Positions 2,542 through 12,087 of a DNA stretch of 64,000 bases are shown here, one piece after another; the first letter of the stretch is position 1, and the number at the start of each line of letters is the position of its first letter. The position numbers and the translations under genes were made by a program. The stretch lies in the NCBI RefSeq assembly GCF_048403405.1, contig NZ_CP183129.1; one strand, 5' to 3'. The stretch comes from Escherichia coli. Lineage in GTDB: Bacteria > Pseudomonadota > Gammaproteobacteria > Enterobacterales > Enterobacteriaceae. Under the pieces are notes generated by a model. It searched no databases and had not been told where the DNA came from. It saw nothing but the letters and a program-made list of their open reading frames with translations.

Positions 2542-4453
2542 TCACTCCTCCGGACAGCTTCGCTGCCAGTTCTTTAAGGGTTGGCCGGGTCGTCTCTTCT
2601 TCCCGGGATTTTGCCAGTACAGCCAGATCAAGCTGCCAGCGTTGCACGGACACACGTAATGCCGCGTAGGCATACACCAGGCAGTCCAGCGCTTCGTTAC
2701 GCCGCTTTTTGTTATCCCACAGCAGACGCATCTTTCCTTTTTCCCACTTCTCCACAAGCTCTTCCGCGACCAGTTGCTGCGCCTCTGTCTGCGAAAAAAT
2801 CTCCGGATCATCAGGAAAACGGATGGCATACGACGTGGCTTCATCCGCAGGCGTGGGCTCGGCTTTCATACGGGCATAGAGAATTTCTTTTGCGGTGTCC
2901 GTCCCCACTTCACACAGATAAACGCCCCGCTGATTGCGGGTTTTCGGCATGGTGATCACCGGCTTGCCATAGACAGACGCGCCTTTTACCGGCAGCACAC
3001 GGAAAACACCGTGTTTTTTTGACCTCTGGTAGACGATTTCACCATCGATCCCCCCGGTGTCCCAGCAGACACGGGAAATGGTCATTTCGGTGCCATCCGC
3101 ATGGCGGTATTTTTTGTTGATCGCCGCATCCACACGTAACAGCGTCTCTTCCTCATCAGGACGCCCCATAATGATGATTTTATCCACCAGAAAAGCTTCC
3201 TCTCCCGGTGCCCATCCCCAGACATACATCTCAAAACGGTTTCGCTGCGAGTCAATGCCCGCCGTCAGATAAACCACCCGGGCAGGCACCGCCGCCGTGT
3301 AACGCACAACCTTATCCATCAGCACCTGGTGATCGAGTTTTTCGCCCACGGCCTCTTCCCAGGTCTCGCCCAGCGTGGTGTTCACAAAGGTTTTCAGGCC
3401 GTTGGGATCTTTCAGTGCATCCAGCCAGTCATAGACTATCTGTACCCAGGTGGTGAACGGACTGTACGCTGTCCAGATATGGAACGTGATGGAGCGCGGC
3501 GGCGGAATTTCATTATCCGCGGCGCTGAAAAACGTCAGACCGTCACGGGTCCACATCCCCGTGTTTTCACAGATCCACCGCCCGTTGCTCTGGTCAAGCT
3601 CAGACTGATGGATCACGCAGCCATGATGTTCACAGAGGTAGAAAACGCTTTCGGGGCTGTCCTTCTCCCATTTAAGGCCAAAAGGCGTGGATTCATCGCC
3701 AAATTTCAGATACTGCTCCTCCCCACAGTGTGGGCAGGGCACATAAAAACGCATGAAATGCGCCGACTCGTTGGCCGCTTTTTCGATCTGGCAGGTGCCT
3801 TTGATTTTAGGCGTCGAGCCGCGAATGGATTTGGGCCATACAGAGCCCTCAATACGTTTATCCCCAAGCAGGGTTGGCGAACCCTCTTTTTCGACATCCG
3901 GTTCGAACGAGGAAAGTTCGTCATAGCAGACCACGTCCACGGATTTTTCACGGTAGTTTTTGGCGGCAGCGCCGCCCAGGCACCAGAAACCCACACCCGA
4001 TGAAAAGCGTTTCAGCGTGAGGGTATTGTCACGATGTTTACGCCCCAGCCATGGAAAAAGGTCTTTCAGACATGGCACATCCCGAATCGTCGCCTCCACG
4101 TGAGACTTCATAAAATCTTCAGCGGCAGAATCCGTGGGCTGAAAAAGCAGACTGTTTCGGGATTTATGCTCAATAAAATACCCGACCACCCCCAGCAACA
4201 TCTTTGTATAGCCAACACGGGCAGATTTAATCAGATTAACAGTCCGGATCTGATCATTCCCCATGCTGTTCATGATGGCGATCTGGAACGGCAGCGTTTT
4301 CCATTCTCCCTCACCATATGAAGATTCTTTAGGCAGATAATAATTTTGATCAGCCCATTCAACTGGCGTCACCGGCAATGCCCTTATCAGGGGCTGTAAT
4401 GCTGTTGTGACAGCACTCATCATATTATTCAGTTGTTGCTCTGATATATTCAT
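2525..4453 (-). CDS. Terminase large subunit (lambda gpA-like)
   Basis: Alignable along its length to lambda gpA from MNISEQQ... (VEWADQNYYLPKESSY, KSARVGYTKMLLG, CPHCGEEQYLKFGD). I start at the internal Met at 4453, not the track start at 4510. Confidence 0.9.
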   Translation of the reverse strand: MNISEQQLNNMMSAVTTALQPLIRALPVTPVEWADQNYYLPKESSYGEGEWKTLPFQIAIMNSMGNDQIRTVNLIKSARVGYTKMLLGVVGYFIEHKSRNSLLFQPTDSAAEDFMKSHVEATIRDVPCLKDLFPWLGRKHRDNTLTLKRFSSGVGFWCLGGAAAKNYREKSVDVVCYDELSSFEPDVEKEGSPTLLGDKRIEGSVWPKSIRGSTPKIKGTCQIEKAANESAHFMRFYVPCPHCGEEQYLKFGDESTPFGLKWEKDSPESVFYLCEHHGCVIHQSELDQSNGRWICENTGMWTRDGLTFFSAADNEIPPPRSITFHIWTAYSPFTTWVQIVYDWLDALKDPNGLKTFVNTTLGETWEEAVGEKLDHQVLMDKVVRYTAAVPARVVYLTAGIDSQRNRFEMYVWGWAPGEEAFLVDKIIIMGRPDEEETLLRVDAAINKKYRHADGTEMTISRVCWDTGGIDGEIVYQRSKKHGVFRVLPVKGASVYGKPVITMPKTRNQRGVYLCEVGTDTAKEILYARMKAEPTPADEATSYAIRFPDDPEIFSQTEAQQLVAEELVEKWEKGKMRLLWDNKKRRNEALDCLVYAYAALRVSVQRWQLDLAVLAKSREEETTRPTLKELAAKLSGGVNGYSR

Positions 4454-4934
4454 CGAGTAAATCCGGTAATTTATCCCCCGCCCGCGCACACTGATTTGCC
4501 CCCTTCGCAATAAGGGTTTTCAGATGGTCAAGATGGCGCGGTGTTAAATCAGGAAACTGTCGCTGCATGGATAAAGGGATGGAATCAAGCGTACTGGATA
4601 ACGCCATTGCCAGCTTGCTGAGGGCAAAAATACAGAACCCGGTATCAATAAGTTTTCCTTTTGACACCTCATTTTTTAACTGCTGTGTAACAGCCTGTTC
4701 TGCTGTCAGTTCCCATCTGGCAATAAGCAATTTCTCCTCATAGTCGTCTTCGCTATCGCCATCAGGCACATCGTTTTTACTTCTTCTCAGATACGATATG
4801 TAAAAATCGCGCCAGGCATCCAGATCCAGTTGCCCTCGCTTATTCGATATCGGGGCACCCGGCAATTTCTGCAATCTGCGAAGCTGGCGATCGGTCAGAC
4901 TTAAATGCCTGGCAACTTCAGTCTGCGTAGCCAC
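4425..4934 (-). CDS. Terminase small subunit, Nu1 family, with a divergent N-terminal HTH
   Basis: The C-terminal half (FCIFALSKLA..LDSIPLSMQRQFPDLTPRHLDHLK..LPDLLDEYI) parallels lambda Nu1. The N-terminal HTH (MATQTEVARHLSLTDRQLRRLQK) does not. Sits directly downstream of cos. Confidence 0.75.
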   Translation of the reverse strand: MATQTEVARHLSLTDRQLRRLQKLPGAPISNKRGQLDLDAWRDFYISYLRRSKNDVPDGDSEDDYEEKLLIARWELTAEQAVTQQLKNEVSKGKLIDTGFCIFALSKLAMALSSTLDSIPLSMQRQFPDLTPRHLDHLKTLIAKGANQCARAGDKLPDLLDEYIRATTE

Positions 4935-5892: not shown

Positions 5893-6219
5893 TCAAGGAC
5901 GTGACGGCGTAAAGATAAATTGTCTCTTCACTCCCTGACAGGGGCGATTCTTTTCAAATCGCCATTTCGCCATGGCCTTCACCACTTCATCACGAAACAA
6001 ATTATGAGGCTCTGAGCGGAGAAAAACGATCCGTGTCACAGTCCCATCAGCACCAATATCGAACTTAACCTCAACCAGCCCCTTGATATAATTTGCTGCA
6101 GCATATTCCGGATATCGTGGATACACCGTCACTAATTGCCGGGGCTCATCAGCTTTTTGCTGCGAGCATCCCACTGCCAGGACAGATAACAGAAAAAGTA
6201 GTAAAAGGCGTCTTTTCAT
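5893..6219 (-). CDS. Lipoprotein consisting of a TonB C-terminal domain (108 aa)
   Basis: Signal plus lipobox MKRRLLLLFLLSVLAVGC. YPRYPEYAAANYIKGLVEVKFDIGADGTVTRIVFLRSEPHNLFRDEVVKAMAKWRFE aligns with E. coli TonB [56 protein letters not shown] AGGA. Confidence 0.75.
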   Translation of the reverse strand: MKRRLLLLFLLSVLAVGCSQQKADEPRQLVTVYPRYPEYAAANYIKGLVEVKFDIGADGTVTRIVFLRSEPHNLFRDEVVKAMAKWRFEKNRPCQGVKRQFIFTPSRP

Positions 6220-6529
6220 TTTTATTCCTACGGGTCTTATTCTGACAATATATCCTGTGTTCCAGACTGCCACATCACCACATCCTGTGCCATTATCTGA
6301 CTCACATTACATACATCGCATCGGGATACAGTAGTAGCACTTTCTGTAATACAGCTTCCTGTTTCTTCCACCATCGCACCGGGATAAACCCGCGAATCAT
6401 TAACGCGGTAAAAACCCGGTGTGCATCGTTTTTAATTATCCCCGCACACTCGCGCAGAGGAGTCTCCCTGTCGGGCTGCGGTCTCTGTTAATGAGGGAAT
6501 ATAGCGACGATACGGCGCATCAACAAAAC

Positions 6530-7003
6530 TTATTTCAGGCACTGAGTGCGGATATAGTCCTGTGCCCCTTCCAGTTGCTTGTGCATCGTCATCAGCCGCT
6601 CTCTGAGGGTGAAATAATCCCGTGTAACGGTGTCTGCCAGTTGGGGGCCGGTTGCATTATCCACGCCGGAGGTGGTGGGGGCTTCACGCACGGAGCCTGG
6701 ACAGGTGGCGTTGATCCGCAGGCGCTTACGACCAGCGGCAACGTCAGCGCGAAGAGTTTCATTTTCAGCTCTCGCATCGGCTAATTCCCTCGAGTATTTT
6801 GCATCGAGCGCAGCAACATCGCGCTGGCGCACCTGCATATCAGTAATGGTTGCGTTCGCCAGCTTCAGTTCACTGGCTTTGTTATCGCGCTGCGCTTTGT
6901 AGGTAATCGCGTTATCACGGTAATGGTCTGTTGCCATCCACAGCGCACCACAGGCCACCAGCAGAATAACGATAAACGCGGAAAGCATTCGGTTTATGTT
7001 CAC
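6530..7003 (-). CDS. Rz: i-spanin Rz
   Basis: [14 protein letters not shown]...[20 protein letters not shown]...[19 protein letters not shown] closely parallels lambda Rz. The GTG start overlaps the upstream stop (GTGA); an alternative ATG lies at 6988. Confidence 0.9.
6592..6777 (-). CDS. Rz1: o-spanin Rz1 (embedded in Rz, +1 frame)
   Basis: Lipobox LVVSAC and [30 protein letters not shown] match lambda Rz1. Confidence 0.85.
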
Positions 7004-7131
7004 CCCAGCAACCCCGACGAAGACAACATCATCCAGGCCATGGAAAGAAAAAGAGCAACCAGCATTAGTGAAAATGAAATGCCGACAATTACACAGAGGA
7101 TCTTCGCCAGCGTTATGAGTTTGTCTGACAT
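7000..7131 (-). CDS. 43-aa single-pass membrane peptide in the lysis cassette
   Basis: ATG at 7131 preceded by GGGAGG. Sequence [43 protein letters not shown]. Its stop overlaps the Rz GTG start. Confidence 0.45.
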
Positions 7132-7145
7132 GCTTAATCCTCCCT

Positions 7146-7328
7146 TCACGATTTCAACGCAATGACCAGTTTTGCCAGCCCATACAGCATCGGGGACACA
7201 GCAACACCGACCGCCACCCACTTAATGGCAAAAGCCAGTGCTCTGCTGATGTCATCAGTTACAGGCGCTTTCAGTTCAAGGCCATTTTTCATAGTCAACC
7301 TCAACAGAATTCGTTTACACTTCGCCAT
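7146..7328 (-). CDS. 60-aa hypothetical protein with a hydrophobic/amphipathic C-terminus in the lysis cassette
   Basis: ATG at 7328 preceded by AAGGGAG. Sequence [60 protein letters not shown]. Confidence 0.45.
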
Positions 7329-7484
7329 GTTCTCCCTTGCCTTACTCAAGGTCAGAAACACAAAACCTCGCTTGGTGCCAACAAACGGGGTTTTTACTTT
7401 TATTCACTTACGTTTCGCCAGTTCGCAGGATTTCGTGTTATCCGCCCGCGTGGCCATTCCTCATTTTTCAGCAAAATATTCTGC

Positions 7485-8018
7485 TTATCTGTCGATACCC
7501 CAGCACGCCAGCGCGCTCTCCTGGTCACGACGGGATACCTGACCGTAACAGTTGTTTGAACGAATACGGCAGTCTCTGCCACCGTCCTTAATCCACCAGC
7601 GAATCGCTTCGCAGGCACCTTTTCGATCACCAGCATTAATTCGTCTGTAAAACGTCGACGGGAAACACTTACCGGGATCAATGTTGTACGGACAGAATGA
7701 CGCGATCCCCGCTTTCTGGGGTTCGGTCAGCGGCACTCTGATGTTTTTCTCCACCCACGCCAGCGCTTTATCACGCTCAATGGCGTTAACCTGGTCGCAT
7801 TTTTCCTTCGACAACTTCATGCCCGGAACGACAGGTTTGCCATCCACCATGATGGCACCACGGCAGATGGTCCAGATACCTGCACCATCACGGTATGCCG
7901 TGGTGTGGTTGCCTTCCTTTTCATCCAGAAACTGGTCGAGAATGTCAGGCGCAGGCGCACCAGCGGCAATCAGCGCCAGAACGGCAGCCGACAGGCCGTA
8001 TTTGATTTTGGTGTTCAT
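7485..8018 (-). CDS. SAR endolysin (GH24 T4-lysozyme-type)
   Basis: Gly/Ala-rich N-terminal signal-anchor-release segment (YGLSAAVLALIAAGAPAP), then catalytic spacing E-x8-D-x5-T (EGNHTTAYRDGAGIWT). Resembles the phage 21 / Stx-phage R protein. Confidence 0.9.
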   Translation of the reverse strand: MNTKIKYGLSAAVLALIAAGAPAPDILDQFLDEKEGNHTTAYRDGAGIWTICRGAIMVDGKPVVPGMKLSKEKCDQVNAIERDKALAWVEKNIRVPLTEPQKAGIASFCPYNIDPGKCFPSTFYRRINAGDRKGACEAIRWWIKDGGRDCRIRSNNCYGQVSRRDQESALACWGIDR

Positions 8019-8054
8019 GGATATATTAAATATTCAGCCGCTGTCCCTGGCCCA

Positions 8055-8945
8055 CTAAATACGCACTTTAAGATAAGTCAGCCCCGGATGAAGCCAGTAA
8101 GCCGGCACTTTTTTAAAGGGTGGAGTATTAAAATCACGAAGAAGAGCCTCCCGCACAATTGCATCCTTATCAGCACCACTGGCCAGCGCTTCAATCTCAG
8201 CGGCTACCTGAAGATATCCCATGCAACGGCCAACGCGCTTCATCAGCCCCTGCTTTTTATTGTTCTTCAGGTAATCAATGGCAAATTCAATGAGCTCCTC
8301 ACTGTGCTGGTGCGATGGAGGTGTTACTTTCCCATTTTCTGAGATGGTTATTTTCCCAGCATCACCGGATACAACAAAGGATGGCCGGTTACACTCCCAT
8401 TCCGGGTCACTGAAATTATCATTATGAATACTGAAACACTCTGCGAGATTTCTGCTCATCACTTTCCGACAATAATCGTCAAACGCAGCAAACTGCTTTT
8501 CATCGCCAGAAGGCACCAATATCGACCATTTCTTATTCAGCTCAACGACGTAGCTCTCCAGTTTTTCAATACGTGATTCAACATCATCTTTTTCTGACCG
8601 CAGTGTTGACGGCGGCATCTTCAGAGAACAAGTAATTCTTCCCGGTAGCTTTCCTTTGTAGGTTATCAACATATCCTGCGCCTCTAAAATTACGGGGCGC
8701 TTTTCCGGCAACGGTTCGTTCCATTCACATAACCCGGCAGCAACATCCATGAAAAACTGCTTCGCCTGCTTTTTCGCCTCAGCTTCGTAAAACTCCAGCG
8801 TGGCACCTTCAGTACGGTCAAGACTAATCGCCACATCTGGCAACAACAGCGACGCTTGCCCGTCACCTTCCGACTTCACAGTAACAGTAACCTTATCCCC
8901 GTAATTATTTATCCCCTTAACAACCAGTTCATATTTTTTATTCAT
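8055..8945 (-). CDS. Hypothetical 296-aa protein between holin and endolysin
   Basis: Long ORF. Its ATG at 8945 lies 4 nt after the holin TAA, with GGAGAG inside the holin 3' end. No TM segment or motif that I recognise; a coiled-coil-like stretch DDVESRIEKLESYVVELNKKW. Confidence 0.7.
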   Translation of the reverse strand: MNKKYELVVKGINNYGDKVTVTVKSEGDGQASLLLPDVAISLDRTEGATLEFYEAEAKKQAKQFFMDVAAGLCEWNEPLPEKRPVILEAQDMLITYKGKLPGRITCSLKMPPSTLRSEKDDVESRIEKLESYVVELNKKWSILVPSGDEKQFAAFDDYCRKVMSRNLAECFSIHNDNFSDPEWECNRPSFVVSGDAGKITISENGKVTPPSHQHSEELIEFAIDYLKNNKKQGLMKRVGRCMGYLQVAAEIEALASGADKDAIVREALLRDFNTPPFKKVPAYWLHPGLTYLKVRI

Positions 8946-8949
8946 CACT

Positions 8950-9165
8950 TTACTCTCCCCGCGCCGCCTTACGCCGGTCCTCTTTGATTTTGAAATACAG
9001 GTTAGTCAGATATGTCAGCAGCCCAAACAGCAGACTCCCCAGCACGCCTATTGCCGCCCACTGAGACGGGGAAACCCTGTCCAGCAACTGCAGGAACCAG
9101 TAGCCCGTTCCCACCGCTGACGTGGTGTATGACACACCTGTTGTGATTTTTTCCATCTGGTACAT
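8950..9165 (-). CDS. Class II pinholin (phage 21 S21 / Stx-phage S type), 71 aa
   Basis: [71 protein letters not shown] closely parallels S21. Possible dual start (Met1/Met4). SD GGGAG. Confidence 0.85.
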
Positions 9166-9314: not shown

Positions 9315-9476
9315 TTATGATGATGCCGGTGCATTTATCTCCAGCACCAGACTTTCTATCTCAACGCCATACGTTGCATTTTTGGTAATATCCGTCAGCG
9401 TCAGTGCATTTAGTCCCACTGCCAGACCGTCTTTTATGGCCTGGAATGCCGGGCCAGTACGATGACGTAGTATCAC
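9315..9476 (-). CDS. Possible 53-aa ORF coupled to the DUF1737 gene (GTGA overlap)
   Basis: The GTG at 9476 overlaps the upstream TGA. Below the length cutoff of the ORF track. No recognisable similarity. Confidence 0.3.
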
Positions 9477-9661
9477 TCCGGCTCAGTTGCACCACTGACC
9501 ACCACATCACCTTCTGCTGCAATCGCCTGCATCAGGGTATAAGGGGTTATGGCCACCGGACTACCAAACGGCTGCCAGCCCTCTTTCAGTTTATGTGTCA
9601 GCTTTTCCGCAAGATCTGACGGCGACGCCGCCCTGACAACATCATAGTGTTTAAATGCCAT
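9473..9661 (-). CDS. DUF1737-like small protein
   Basis: MAFKHYDVVRAASPSDLAEKLTHKLKEGWQPFGSPV... matches my recollection of the DUF1737 proteins found upstream of holins in Stx-type lambdoid phages. Confidence 0.65.
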   Translation of the reverse strand: MAFKHYDVVRAASPSDLAEKLTHKLKEGWQPFGSPVAITPYTLMQAIAAEGDVVVSGATEPE

Positions 9662-9854
9662 GGTTCTTTCCACCATCTGAAAAATGATTCTTTAAAATAC
9701 CTGACATGTAATACAGAAAAAACACAAAACCATACCTTAAATAAAAACCTCATCATCAAGCAGATATGCATGGATAAACTACAAGACGAGATATAAACCA
9801 CCCTGCATTTAAATAAACAATAAACAACATCAGAAAAATAATTCTGCTCTATGG

Positions 9855-9921: not shown

Positions 9922-10257
9922 ATGAAGTGGATTGTGATTGATACAGTTATCCAGCCATCATGCGGAATATCTTTTTCAGTCATATGGAGTAAAATAAAAT
10001 TAATAATCTGGTATCAATCGGATGCTTTCTTACCTCCTGAAAGTATATTTACACTGACTCACACAGGTATCATGCTCAATAACAAAGTGCTACCTGTAAC
10101 CATTTACAACGTAGTACCATTCAATAAAACATTCTGGAATTTAATCAAAAACAGCCAGGAATGCCCTACAAATACAGATAACGTATTGAATGAATGCTTT
10201 AATAACCGTTGCACTCTGCAAATATGTCCTTATGGGCTAAAACAACAAAGTCCATAA
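9922..10257 (+). CDS. Hypothetical 111-aa protein, AT-rich moron antisense to the late operon
   Basis: ORF with SD AAGGAA in a visibly AT-rich block (9680-10260). No recognisable domain. Confidence 0.5.
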
Positions 10258-11015: not shown

Positions 11016-11044
11016 TTTATACGAAACATACGCGATTTAATTGA
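11016..11044 (-). promoter_or_regulatory. Candidate late promoter (pR'-like): TCAATT-17-TATAAA on the minus strand
   Basis: Position immediately after Q, upstream of a short terminated transcript. The hexamers are weak and there is no experimental support. Confidence 0.3.
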
Positions 11045-11726
11045 CTTTTGCAATATCTCGTCGTGAAAAGGTCGCTTTTTGTTGCGCTCTTATTTTCACG
11101 GAGCAAATCAAGGATTCTCTATCGAGGCGCTTAAAAATATCGCACATCTCACGCCAGTAGTTCGCATAATTATGGCTCCAGTTATCAGGCTTAACTCCAC
11201 ACAGTCTGGCAAGCTCCTGTCTCTGGTAGACCTCACACCCGGTAACCCATCCTCTGACATCCTGTGCCGCCAGCCAGATCAACTTCTTCACACGCTCCAG
11301 CGTTTTCACTGCAATTTTTCTGGAGCCGGACTGAGTTTTAAATTCACTCCACCCCCACTGCGTTATCGCGATCTGATGCTCCCAGCAAATGTTTCCGCCA
11401 TAACACCACAACAACCACGCCTTCTGATGTTCTTCCAGTTCCAGAACAGCACGCCGCCACGATGATGTTGCAAACTCAACAGGACTGACCAGCGCAATTG
11501 ATGAGCCTTTCGCCAGTGATTGTTTACCCTGGATCGGGGGATTATCCCGCGTGATCATTTTTCCGGTTACCTCATCGCGGTAACGAATTTTTTTGCGTCT
11601 GTAACGCCCTGTATCGAACAGGGCATTTTCCTGCCAGGCTTCCAGCTGGCATTTTGTCGACCCACTGAGATCTGCAGTGGCAATCATGAGTTGCTCACGA
11701 ACAAACTGTAAATACTGGTTATTCAT
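11037..11726 (-). CDS. Late-gene antiterminator Q-like protein (229 aa)
   Basis: Positional call: directly after RusA (ATGAATAA overlap) and directly before a promoter/terminator arrangement. I do not securely recognise the sequence family. Confidence 0.55.
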   Translation of the reverse strand: MNNQYLQFVREQLMIATADLSGSTKCQLEAWQENALFDTGRYRRKKIRYRDEVTGKMITRDNPPIQGKQSLAKGSSIALVSPVEFATSSWRRAVLELEEHQKAWLLWCYGGNICWEHQIAITQWGWSEFKTQSGSRKIAVKTLERVKKLIWLAAQDVRGWVTGCEVYQRQELARLCGVKPDNWSHNYANYWREMCDIFKRLDRESLICSVKIRAQQKATFSRRDIAKVN

Positions 11727-12087
11727 GCACACCCACCTCTGTAATTCTTATCTCCAGCCGTCCACCAGATACTGGCTGGCCACGTACAATATTGATTTCA
11801 TCAAACTGCTCATCGTCCATTAACAACCCCGCGTGCGTCAGCGCATCCAGTGGTGCTTTCAGAATATTGTCCAGGTCACGACGACGCTTATCCGGTGGCT
11901 CTGCAATAATTTTTATTGCCAGCCGTCCGGACAGGCTTAATTTCAGTCGCTGCTGGCGAACAATAAGCGCCACTGCCCGGCGATAACGCTCCCCGGCTTT
12001 TGATACAAAATATGTGCTGCCACGGCGTCGCCAGTAAGTGTTCACCGTCGGCGAGTAAGGCAAAACAAATTCTATGCGTTCGGTCAT
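11719..12087 (-). CDS. rusA: RusA-family Holliday junction resolvase
   Basis: PPDKRRRDLDNILKAPLDALTHAGLLMDDEQ...GGRLEIRITE parallels K-12 RusA [31 protein letters not shown]...GGRLELTITE. Confidence 0.9.
   Translation of the reverse strand: MTERIEFVLPYSPTVNTYWRRRGSTYFVSKAGERYRRAVALIVRQQRLKLSLSGRLAIKIIAEPPDKRRRDLDNILKAPLDALTHAGLLMDDEQFDEINIVRGQPVSGGRLEIRITEVGVHE

Follow-up and report, generated by a model that had tools for sequence, protein, structure and literature searches.

A long YdfR-family gene in a polymorphic slot between the pinholin and endolysin genes of a lambdoid Escherichia coli prophage

Here, we describe an open reading frame (ORF) of 296 codons at positions 8055..8945, minus strand, of a 64,000-nucleotide (nt) stretch of Escherichia coli DNA (contig NZ_CP183129.1 of assembly GCF_048403405.1; the whole stretch is called the window below). 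The ORF lies between the gene for an S21-type pinholin (S) and the gene for a signal-arrest-release (SAR) endolysin (R), and its product is almost certainly a long-architecture member, of 296 amino acids (aa), of the YdfR/DUF1327 family. The reading we favour, to which we give a probability of about 0.45, is that the gene is an optional accessory carried in a cargo slot at the S-R junction of lambdoid prophages, Shiga toxin (Stx) prophages included, with a proposed role in RNA turnover late in induction. The elements on which the argument turns are the following.

8055..8945, minus strand: long YdfR-family gene, an intact 296-codon ORF with its ATG at 8945 and its stop, TAG, at 8055-8057
8958..8953, minus strand: Shine-Dalgarno (SD) sequence GGAGAG, within the holin 3' end and 7 nt 5' of the ORF ATG
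8950..9165, minus strand: S21-type pinholin, 71 aa, dual start M1/M4 (MYQM); Pfam PF04971 Phage_holin_2_1 (P21 S), E 7e-33; PHROG 'holin'
7485..8018, minus strand: SAR endolysin R, 177 aa; PF00959, E 1e-22; E35-x8-D44-x5-T50
8019..8054, minus strand: AU-rich leader of R, 36 nt, with no SD-like 4-mer and a duplex of -1.7 kcal/mol
11037..11732, minus strand: Q antiterminator; PF06323, E 2e-82; about 2 kb upstream, defining the late operon

Residues 1-100 of the product match Pfam DUF1327 (PF07041) at E 1.3e-40 and 137.9 bits, against a gathering cut-off of 25, over positions 1-88 of the 93 in the profile. PHROG 1085, to which no function is assigned, matches residues 1-296 over the full length of its own profile (1-296 of 296; E 1.2e-189), and all nine PHROG matches of the protein carry the category 'unknown function'. 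In BLASTP, residues 1-74 are 47% identical to residues 1-74 of YdfR from E. coli K-12 (E 6e-21), whose gene occupies the same place in the Qin prophage, in the order essQ-ydfR-rrrQ. A first-pass annotation, made from the letters of the window, had treated the ORF as uncatalogued and linked to ydfR by position only. That view has to be given up, since Pfam, PHROG 1085 and BLASTP all identify the ORF as a homologue of ydfR. K-12 YdfR (b1555; PF07041) shares the homologous N-terminal domain (N-domain) and is likewise soluble, and its gene stands 4 nt past the class II holin gene essQ and before the lysozyme gene rrrQ. It differs in its length of 103 aa, in having a single domain, and in that its gene overlaps rrrQ rather than being followed by a 36-nt SD-less leader. 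The window protein, at 296 aa, exceeds the single-domain size of about 100-115 aa in the YdfR family: the DUF1327 model does not reach residues 119-296, and about 60% of the protein (an extension of 43 residues, the helical hairpin and a C-terminal module of 116 residues) is without counterpart in K-12 YdfR.

The gene itself is neither new nor rare. It is catalogued in Pfam, PHROGs and PGAP, and an ORF of this kind splitting S from R is not a novelty. A megablast search of 5426 complete E. coli genomes found at least part of the ORF in about half of them (2701); at least 80% of it is covered in 495, with 327 records at least 99% identical and intact copies 99.9% identical in more than 300 complete genomes. 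The common allele, which is intact, is one nucleotide from the window copy (V92 instead of M92) and is found on no fewer than 1000 public contigs, where it is called 'YdfR family protein' or 'DUF1327 domain-containing protein'. We considered and rejected the idea that the ORF is a pseudogene. In strain 7/2 (NZ_CP023820.1; 9001..9336 in the coordinates of the retrieved locus) PGAP annotates the first 112 codons alone, as a pseudogene 'missing C-terminus', yet the copy in that strain is an intact 296-codon ORF one nucleotide from that of the window, so that the flag is an annotation artefact. The PGAP reference model covers the short YdfR form only, and long forms may be systematically mis-flagged for that reason. 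The homologues found initially, about 200 proteins of 103 to 333 aa, were all from Escherichia or Shigella. When 1.84 billion representative proteins were searched exhaustively with a profile, 112 clusters at 50% identity were obtained, so that the YdfR family is taxonomically narrow.

That the ORF is a real gene and not a chance ORF is indicated by its ratio of nonsynonymous to synonymous substitution rates (dN/dS) of 0.2-0.6 against homologues and by relatives in Salmonella at 27-35% identity. The holin 3' end reads GGGGAGAG-TAA (TAA at 8952..8950), followed by AGTG and then by the ATG of the ORF, a gap of 4 nt; the ORF listing also offers an in-frame GTG at 8948, which lengthens the ORF by one codon. 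The SD is predicted to pair with the 3' end of 16S rRNA with a duplex energy of -8.5 kcal/mol, and 36 nt separate the ORF stop from the endolysin ATG at 8018. The first-pass annotation had read these junctions correctly, namely the ATG 4 nt past the holin TAA, the SD inside the holin 3' end and the 36 nt ahead of the endolysin. It was also right about the flanking genes: PF04971 and the dual start identify an S21-type pinholin, and the lysozyme has both the E-x8-D-x5-T arrangement of a SAR endolysin and a Gly/Ala-rich, weakly hydrophobic, SAR-like N-terminus. The ORF product (33.3 kDa, pI about 6) is predicted to be soluble. Its maximum Kyte-Doolittle hydropathy over 19 residues is 0.75, as against 1.7 for the holin and R, which agrees with the earlier statement that it contains no transmembrane (TM) segment, and no signal peptide was found in it. 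Because a simple promoter scan of the minus strand between Q and R revealed no promoter-like site, we assign the ORF to the Q-dependent late operon; lacking a promoter-like site of its own and with its start placed behind the holin, it is expected to be made alongside the lysis proteins, as had been supposed.

The product is modular, and four regions can be told apart in the alignment and in AlphaFold2 (AF2) models, for which confidence is given as the predicted local distance difference test score (pLDDT).

8721..8945, minus strand: N-terminal YdfR (DUF1327) domain, residues 1-75; three beta strands and a long helix, pLDDT 64-87
8592..8720, minus strand: Pro/Lys-rich extension, residues 76-118; predicted disordered, pLDDT below 40
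8406..8591, minus strand: helical hairpin or coiled-coil-like module, residues 119-180; AF2 helices at 119-146 and 149-171, pLDDT about 50
8058..8405, minus strand: C-terminal 'D' module, residues 181-296; three short strands and four to five helices, absent from Pfam

The Pro/Lys-rich extension is also present in the short YdfR forms of 112-114 aa, e.g. ORF47 of phage BP-4795. Residues 119-180 are the variable part of the family, with indels and replacements among the aligned relatives, and the D module carries the conserved motifs H214, GRCMG-LQ-AAE-E, (D/N)xPPFK and W-x2-PG-x2-YLK-R. The architectures seen comprise the short form of 112-114 aa, a form of 183 aa that ends after the helices, forms of 185 and 213 aa that have the helices and the D module without DUF1327, and fused forms of 268-333 aa. 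We had entertained the possibility that the 213-aa DUF1327-less protein was a gene fragment. This was rejected, as in Stx2_12E129 it is a complete gene beginning 3 nt past the holin stop, in the same slot. Judged by these forms, the N- and C-terminal ends are separable, each being found alone in the same slot of other phages, and a strong translational start is kept in all forms examined. Some 296-aa alleles have a K-12-like N-domain on an otherwise near-identical gene, which points to recombination within the gene. Two E. coli family members (P0047, 207 aa; P0054, 196 aa) have tandem DUF1327 domains, which shows that duplication of the N-domain occurs alongside its exchange.

Selection acts unevenly along the protein. 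By the Nei-Gojobori method, with four phage homologues as comparators, dN/dS is 0.20-0.43 in the D module, 0.15-0.43 in the helices and 0.5-0.7 in the N-domain. On these ratios and on its conservation in distant relatives, the D module is under purifying selection and is a real, conserved, separable and uncatalogued domain. Since it is conserved and able to exist alone, it probably has a partner or activity of its own.

Structure prediction supports this division. With an alignment of E. coli sequences only, AF2 reached a mean pLDDT of 51.6, which rose to 61.1 when the Salmonella relatives were added. The better model has two ordered domains, with a pLDDT of 70-89 over residues 185-275 of the D module; residues 73-120 form an unstructured linker, and confidence in the helical hairpin is low. 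The layout proposed from the sequence alone is borne out: the models show a beta-rich N-domain, long central helices and a C-terminal domain that is mixed beta and helical. Searches for relatives of known function gave little. Foldseek with the whole of the better model against BFVD returned a best E of 0.019 and no relative; against the Protein Data Bank (PDB), again with the whole model, the best E was 0.35, although a domain-only query might still match. A sequence-profile search of the PDB with the alignment of the initial homologues yielded coiled-coil noise only (leucine-zipper-type matches, E above 0.3). NCBIfam contains no match for the C-terminal part, a Pfam scan of all 74 family members returned, outside DUF1327, only scattered matches above E 0.005, and the D module has no relative in Pfam, the PDB or BFVD. 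One apparent success, a PDB profile match to 4xhp ('ParM hybrid fusion protein', E 4.6e-5), was rejected as double-counted: this entry holds two ParM copies, each scoring 13-14 bits (independent E 0.3-0.5, accuracy 0.7) over the disordered linker, and ParM in single copy gives E 0.083. The first-pass annotation could name no function for the product, and the searches of Pfam, PHROG, NCBIfam, PADLOC, PDB and BFVD have assigned none either.

The status of the gene as an accessory follows from its distribution. As a query against the phage collection we used S and R fused directly, the ORF being left out, and we took the distance between the two matches as the size of the insert. The joined query matches 364 phage records, and slot states were scored in 60 rows sampled across the ranking, about 50 of which could be scored, with S and R about 90-94% identical to those of the window. 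The slot is empty in about 36 of these 50 (933W, VT1-Sakai, the PA phages and phi191 among them), about 10 have an extra ~400 nt that encodes a YdfR of 112-114 aa (Stx1a, Stx2c, BP-4795 and YYZ-2008 types), and 4 have long inserts. A tblastn search with the 296-aa protein found 106 phage records, roughly 29% of the about 364 with this cassette type. The statement that S and R are adjacent in Stx-type phages is accordingly correct for 933W and about two thirds of the sampled records, and fails for the 29% or so that carry a YdfR-family gene; the gene does not go wherever the cognate holin and endolysin go. Absence from most close relatives, which the first-pass annotation had named beforehand as part of one ground for refutation, is largely what we see, as most S/R records, 933W included, lack the gene. 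By its contents in these phages the S-R junction is a polymorphic cargo slot, which may be empty or hold a short YdfR, the C-terminal module alone or a fused long form. The gene goes unmentioned in a published survey of lysis cassettes in Stx phages (PMC8136144).

These findings bear directly on whether the protein belongs to the lysis machinery. Its absence from most records of the same S/R type argues against a core lysis role, and the existence of 933W and many other phages that have the same type of S and R without it argues that it is dispensable for lysis. The solubility of the protein, too, suggests an accessory late protein rather than a component of the core machinery, and among lysis-category families neither PHROG nor Pfam provides a match for it. 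We conclude that the ORF is probably a dispensable accessory and not a core lysis protein.

Phages with an occupied slot resemble the window closely. ORF47 of BP-4795 (114 aa) and the corresponding proteins of Stx2 phage 86 (268 aa) and Stx2_95 (329 aa) are 77-85% identical to the ORF product where aligned, and their genes share its slot, the coupled start GGGGAGAGTAAAGYGATG and an SD-less R leader. They differ in extent and content: the BP-4795 form ends after residue 114 or so, phage 86 swaps the helical hairpin and Stx2_95 has an insertion of 33 residues. An antisense ORF of ~104 aa ahead of R, absent from the window, is a further feature of phage 86 and Stx2_12E129. Antisense ORFs of about 87-104 aa between the YdfR-family gene and R, all on the minus strand in the coordinates of the retrieved loci, occur in phage 86 (4173..4487), Stx2_12E129 (3145..3459) and PhiR5_1 (3084..3344), the last of these labelled 'DUF1823 containing protein'.

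Occupation of the slot appears to have a consequence for the endolysin gene. In 933W, where S and R are adjacent, the R ATG lies 4 nt past the S stop and behind the same GGGGAGAG, so that R has its SD within S and a predicted duplex of -8.5 kcal/mol. None of the five insert-bearing cassettes checked (window, Stx2_95, BP-4795, phage 86 and Stx2_12E129; -1.7 to +0.3 kcal/mol) provides R with an SD. Alignment of the junctions with 933W and BP-4795 indicates that the GGAGAG in the end of S serves R in insert-free phages and the ORF here. Since R of 933W starts behind the same SD, the inserted gene has taken over the coupled start of R, and the SD-less leader in which R is left would be a side effect of the insertion. 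The Stx2_95 leader is identical to that of the window, and those of BP-4795, phage 86 and Stx2_12E129 share ATATCC before the ATG. The 5' end of R is MNTKIKYGLSAA in the window and in BP-4795 (the two compared) versus MSRKLRYGLSAA in 933W, giving MNTKIK... versus MSRKLR...; these differing first codons suggest a mosaic boundary inside the 5' end of R. The SD-less leader probably lowers endolysin synthesis or ties it to translation of the upstream ORF.

The family has distant members in Salmonella. A word-indexed search found Salmonella enterica hypothetical proteins of 225-338 aa, 27-35% identical, that share the architecture and the D-module motifs; like the ORF product, these prophage proteins (e.g. 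P0239 and P0264) have a beta-rich N-domain, a coiled coil and a D module. They have no PF07041 match in precomputed annotation; of the relatives from the search of representative proteins, one, P0146, has a trace of DUF1327 at E 0.004, below the Pfam threshold. Their genes, like the ORF, belong to a late operon and adjoin a holin and a SAR-type lysozyme. Unlike the ORF, they stand upstream of the holin and are not coupled to it: in two prophage contexts the gene comes after Q and a HicAB pair and directly upstream of the holin, with the SAR-type lysozyme downstream. Comparison of the Salmonella and E. coli gene orders thus shows that adjacency to the holin is conserved and the position between S and R is not. 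The HicA/HicB toxin-antitoxin genes, encoded on the other strand, separate Q from the Salmonella homologue (3458..4112 and 3830..4467 in the two retrieved loci) and are a further example of cargo between Q and the lysis genes.

What the protein might do is suggested by its K-12 relative. Göpel et al. (2026; PMC13232886) recovered K-12 YdfR in a bacterial two-hybrid screen and classed it with those proteins whose contact is with the catalytic N-terminal part of RNase E only: full-length YdfR gave a two-hybrid signal with Rne 1-597, and Strep-YdfR co-purified Rne 1-598. The interacting fragment from the screen consisted of residues 1-72, where the authors place the interaction surface, and YdfR eluates were rich in DNase-resistant nucleic acid (PMC13232886). 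This is the sole informative paper among those that the literature search on YdfR/DUF1327 yielded, the rest of which mostly concern a melanoma cell line or a Bacillus YdfR. By analogy, the N-domain of the long protein, which is homologous to YdfR residues 1-72, would dock on the N-terminal catalytic half of RNase E, bind RNA, or do both, and the D module would serve separately, in partner binding or as an effector. Late in induction, the long YdfR protein would then adjust RNA turnover, and it would stand outside the envelope-disruption machinery. RNase E is an established target of phage proteins, among them T7 gp0.7, phiKZ Dip and T4 Srd, the last of which binds the catalytic half (PMC4980113). 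These are analogues only. Like the ORF product as we imagine it, they are soluble, small or medium-sized phage proteins that bind or modify RNase E; unlike it, they come from virulent phages and are expressed early or in the middle of infection, whereas the ORF is a late gene of a temperate phage, and the searches made here brought up no similarity of sequence or fold between them and the ORF product.

Several points weigh against this proposal. The link to RNase E comes from one study, made under overexpression with a 103-aa relative that is 47% identical. Its authors could not exclude a contaminant as the source of the RNA signal of YdfR, and in their hands overproduction of YdfR hardly altered the transcriptome, was non-toxic and did not stop growth (PMC13232886). 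The N-domain, on which the analogy depends, appears to be under weaker constraint than the rest (dN/dS 0.5-0.7). The low confidence of the AF2 model (mean pLDDT 61) means that a known fold may have been missed, and constant adjacency to the holin, after it in E. coli and before it in Salmonella, could point to a role related to lysis. We therefore regard an RNase E or RNA mechanism for the long form as a speculation that is rather doubtful. A broader version, in which YdfR proteins are widespread late RNase E binders of temperate phages, the D effector is brought to RNase E or RNA, and endolysin synthesis depends on translation of the ORF, strikes us as improbable. If true, however, it would add a new regulatory layer to pinholin/SAR-endolysin cassettes, one linking RNA turnover to the lysis phase.

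The first-pass annotation had put forward a lysis-timing regulator, a late anti-defence or exclusion factor and a selfish insertion as candidate roles, none of which has gained direct support. Lysis regulators encoded in or beside lysis cassettes include the S21-71 antiholin, T4 RI and RIII and P1 LydB. The ORF resembles these in location, and a role in timing is conceivable; it differs in having no TM or periplasmic domain and no match to lysis-category PHROGs, and in being missing from most cassettes of the same type. A regulator of lysis timing or dosage might be a cytoplasmic protein whose target is either the pinholin, for instance the basic tail at its C-terminus, or the SAR endolysin tethered to the membrane. 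Alternatively, the gene might work in cis: as a translated spacer it would separate R from the strong coupled SD and thereby set the S:R ratio. In E. coli and Salmonella alike, family members always adjoin a class II holin or pinholin gene together with a SAR-type lysozyme, which counts in favour of such a regulator, and the translational coupling of the ORF to S fits as well. The cis version gains from the R leaders, SD-less in all insert-bearing cassettes checked as against -8.5 kcal/mol for R of 933W. Moreover, the ydfR Keio mutant is among the hits of an envelope-integrity (leakiness) screen (supplement of PMC3879167, cited in PMC13232886), but this phenotype may reflect polarity of the kan cassette on the downstream lysozyme gene rrrQ. 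Adjacency is itself weak evidence, as lambdoid phages have a general moron hot spot between Q and the lysis genes. The very different architectures found in the slot (103 to 333 aa, or D alone) are hard to fit to one tuned protein-protein mechanism, and the empty slot of 933W and most other records of this S/R type, the want of a TM segment or signal peptide and the lack of similarity to lysis-category PHROGs or known antiholins all speak against a regulator. On balance, we find this explanation unlikely.

The presence/absence polymorphism, the shuffling of modules and the swapped N-domain alleles would also be expected of a moron, expressed late, that serves anti-defence, superinfection exclusion or the benefit of the host, the slot being a diversity hot spot selected by phage conflict. 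Such a gene would be in suitable company, with an IraM homologue, a TonB_C protein and a nanS-p remnant nearby in the window and HicAB beside the Salmonella homologues, and accessory cargo typically has a taxonomic range as narrow as that of the family (112 clusters at 50% identity). Yet the best hit among the PADLOC-DB defence models, PbeC (E 0.018, 11 bits), covers the coiled-coil stretch and is not a defence match, and no enzymatic or DNA-binding motif is recognisable. In the absence of a promoter of its own the gene is not expected to be expressed in the lysogen; indeed, K-12 ydfR is essentially silent under standard growth, with almost no RNA-seq reads (PMC13232886). Neither does the D module, with dN/dS below 1, show any sign of diversifying selection, and we hold this account to be quite improbable. 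Finally, the gene could be neutral or selfish mosaic filler, a remnant of lambdoid recombination kept by its linkage to the lysis genes. Its dispensability in many phages, the many truncated or rearranged forms (with tandem DUF1327 duplications and ends in unrelated sequence) and the PGAP pseudogene flags on some intact copies all speak for this. Filler would scarcely persist, however, as a 296-aa allele that is intact, with hardly any variation, on at least 1000 contigs, nor would it keep a dN/dS of 0.2-0.4 in the D module, D-module motifs conserved at about 30% identity in Salmonella and a strong translational start in every form; this explanation is very unlikely.

The favoured reading, that of an optional accessory with a late role in RNA turnover, matters for more than one prophage. 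Many Stx phages hold a YdfR-family gene inside the very cassette that controls toxin release by lysis. Should the RNase E link prove true for the long forms, temperate lambdoid phages would join T4, T7 and phiKZ as manipulators of the degradosome; should it prove false, the ORF would be an ordinary, optional passenger gene. In the sources searched we found no description of the separable C-terminal domain, of the Salmonella relatives upstream of the holin, of the range of slot states or of the loss of the R SD.

The remainder of the lysis region contains additional small genes. The cassette is closed by the spanin genes.

6530..7003, minus strand: Rz i-spanin; PF03245, E 2e-47; PHROG 13; closes the lysis cassette
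6592..6777, minus strand: Rz1, embedded in Rz (ORF listing)

Two small ORFs lie between R and Rz, at 7146..7361 and 7000..7131 on the minus strand, with hydrophobic C-terminal or central segments. One, of 60-71 aa, matches phrog_1115 (function not assigned) and the other is of about 43 aa; both are hypothetical proteins in the near-identical prophage of strain 7/2, and they may belong to the lysis cassette as small membrane proteins. In the interval from Q to S, a 111-aa ORF on the opposite strand (9922..10257, plus strand) has no Pfam match here, is annotated as the anti-adapter IraM in the strain 7/2 prophage and resembles a moron embedded in the late operon. A 67-aa ORF at 9473..9676 (minus strand) consists of a DUF1737 domain only and is the 5' remnant of a nanS-p/yjhS-type esterase gene, a type of gene that precedes the lysis cassette in Stx phages; PGAP marks the remnant as partial in strain 7/2. 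Just downstream of Rz/Rz1, where phage lambda carries bor, a gene at 5893..6273 (minus strand) encodes a protein with a TonB C-terminal domain, 126 aa from a GTG start (PF03544, E 1e-12), with a lipoprotein-like N-terminus.

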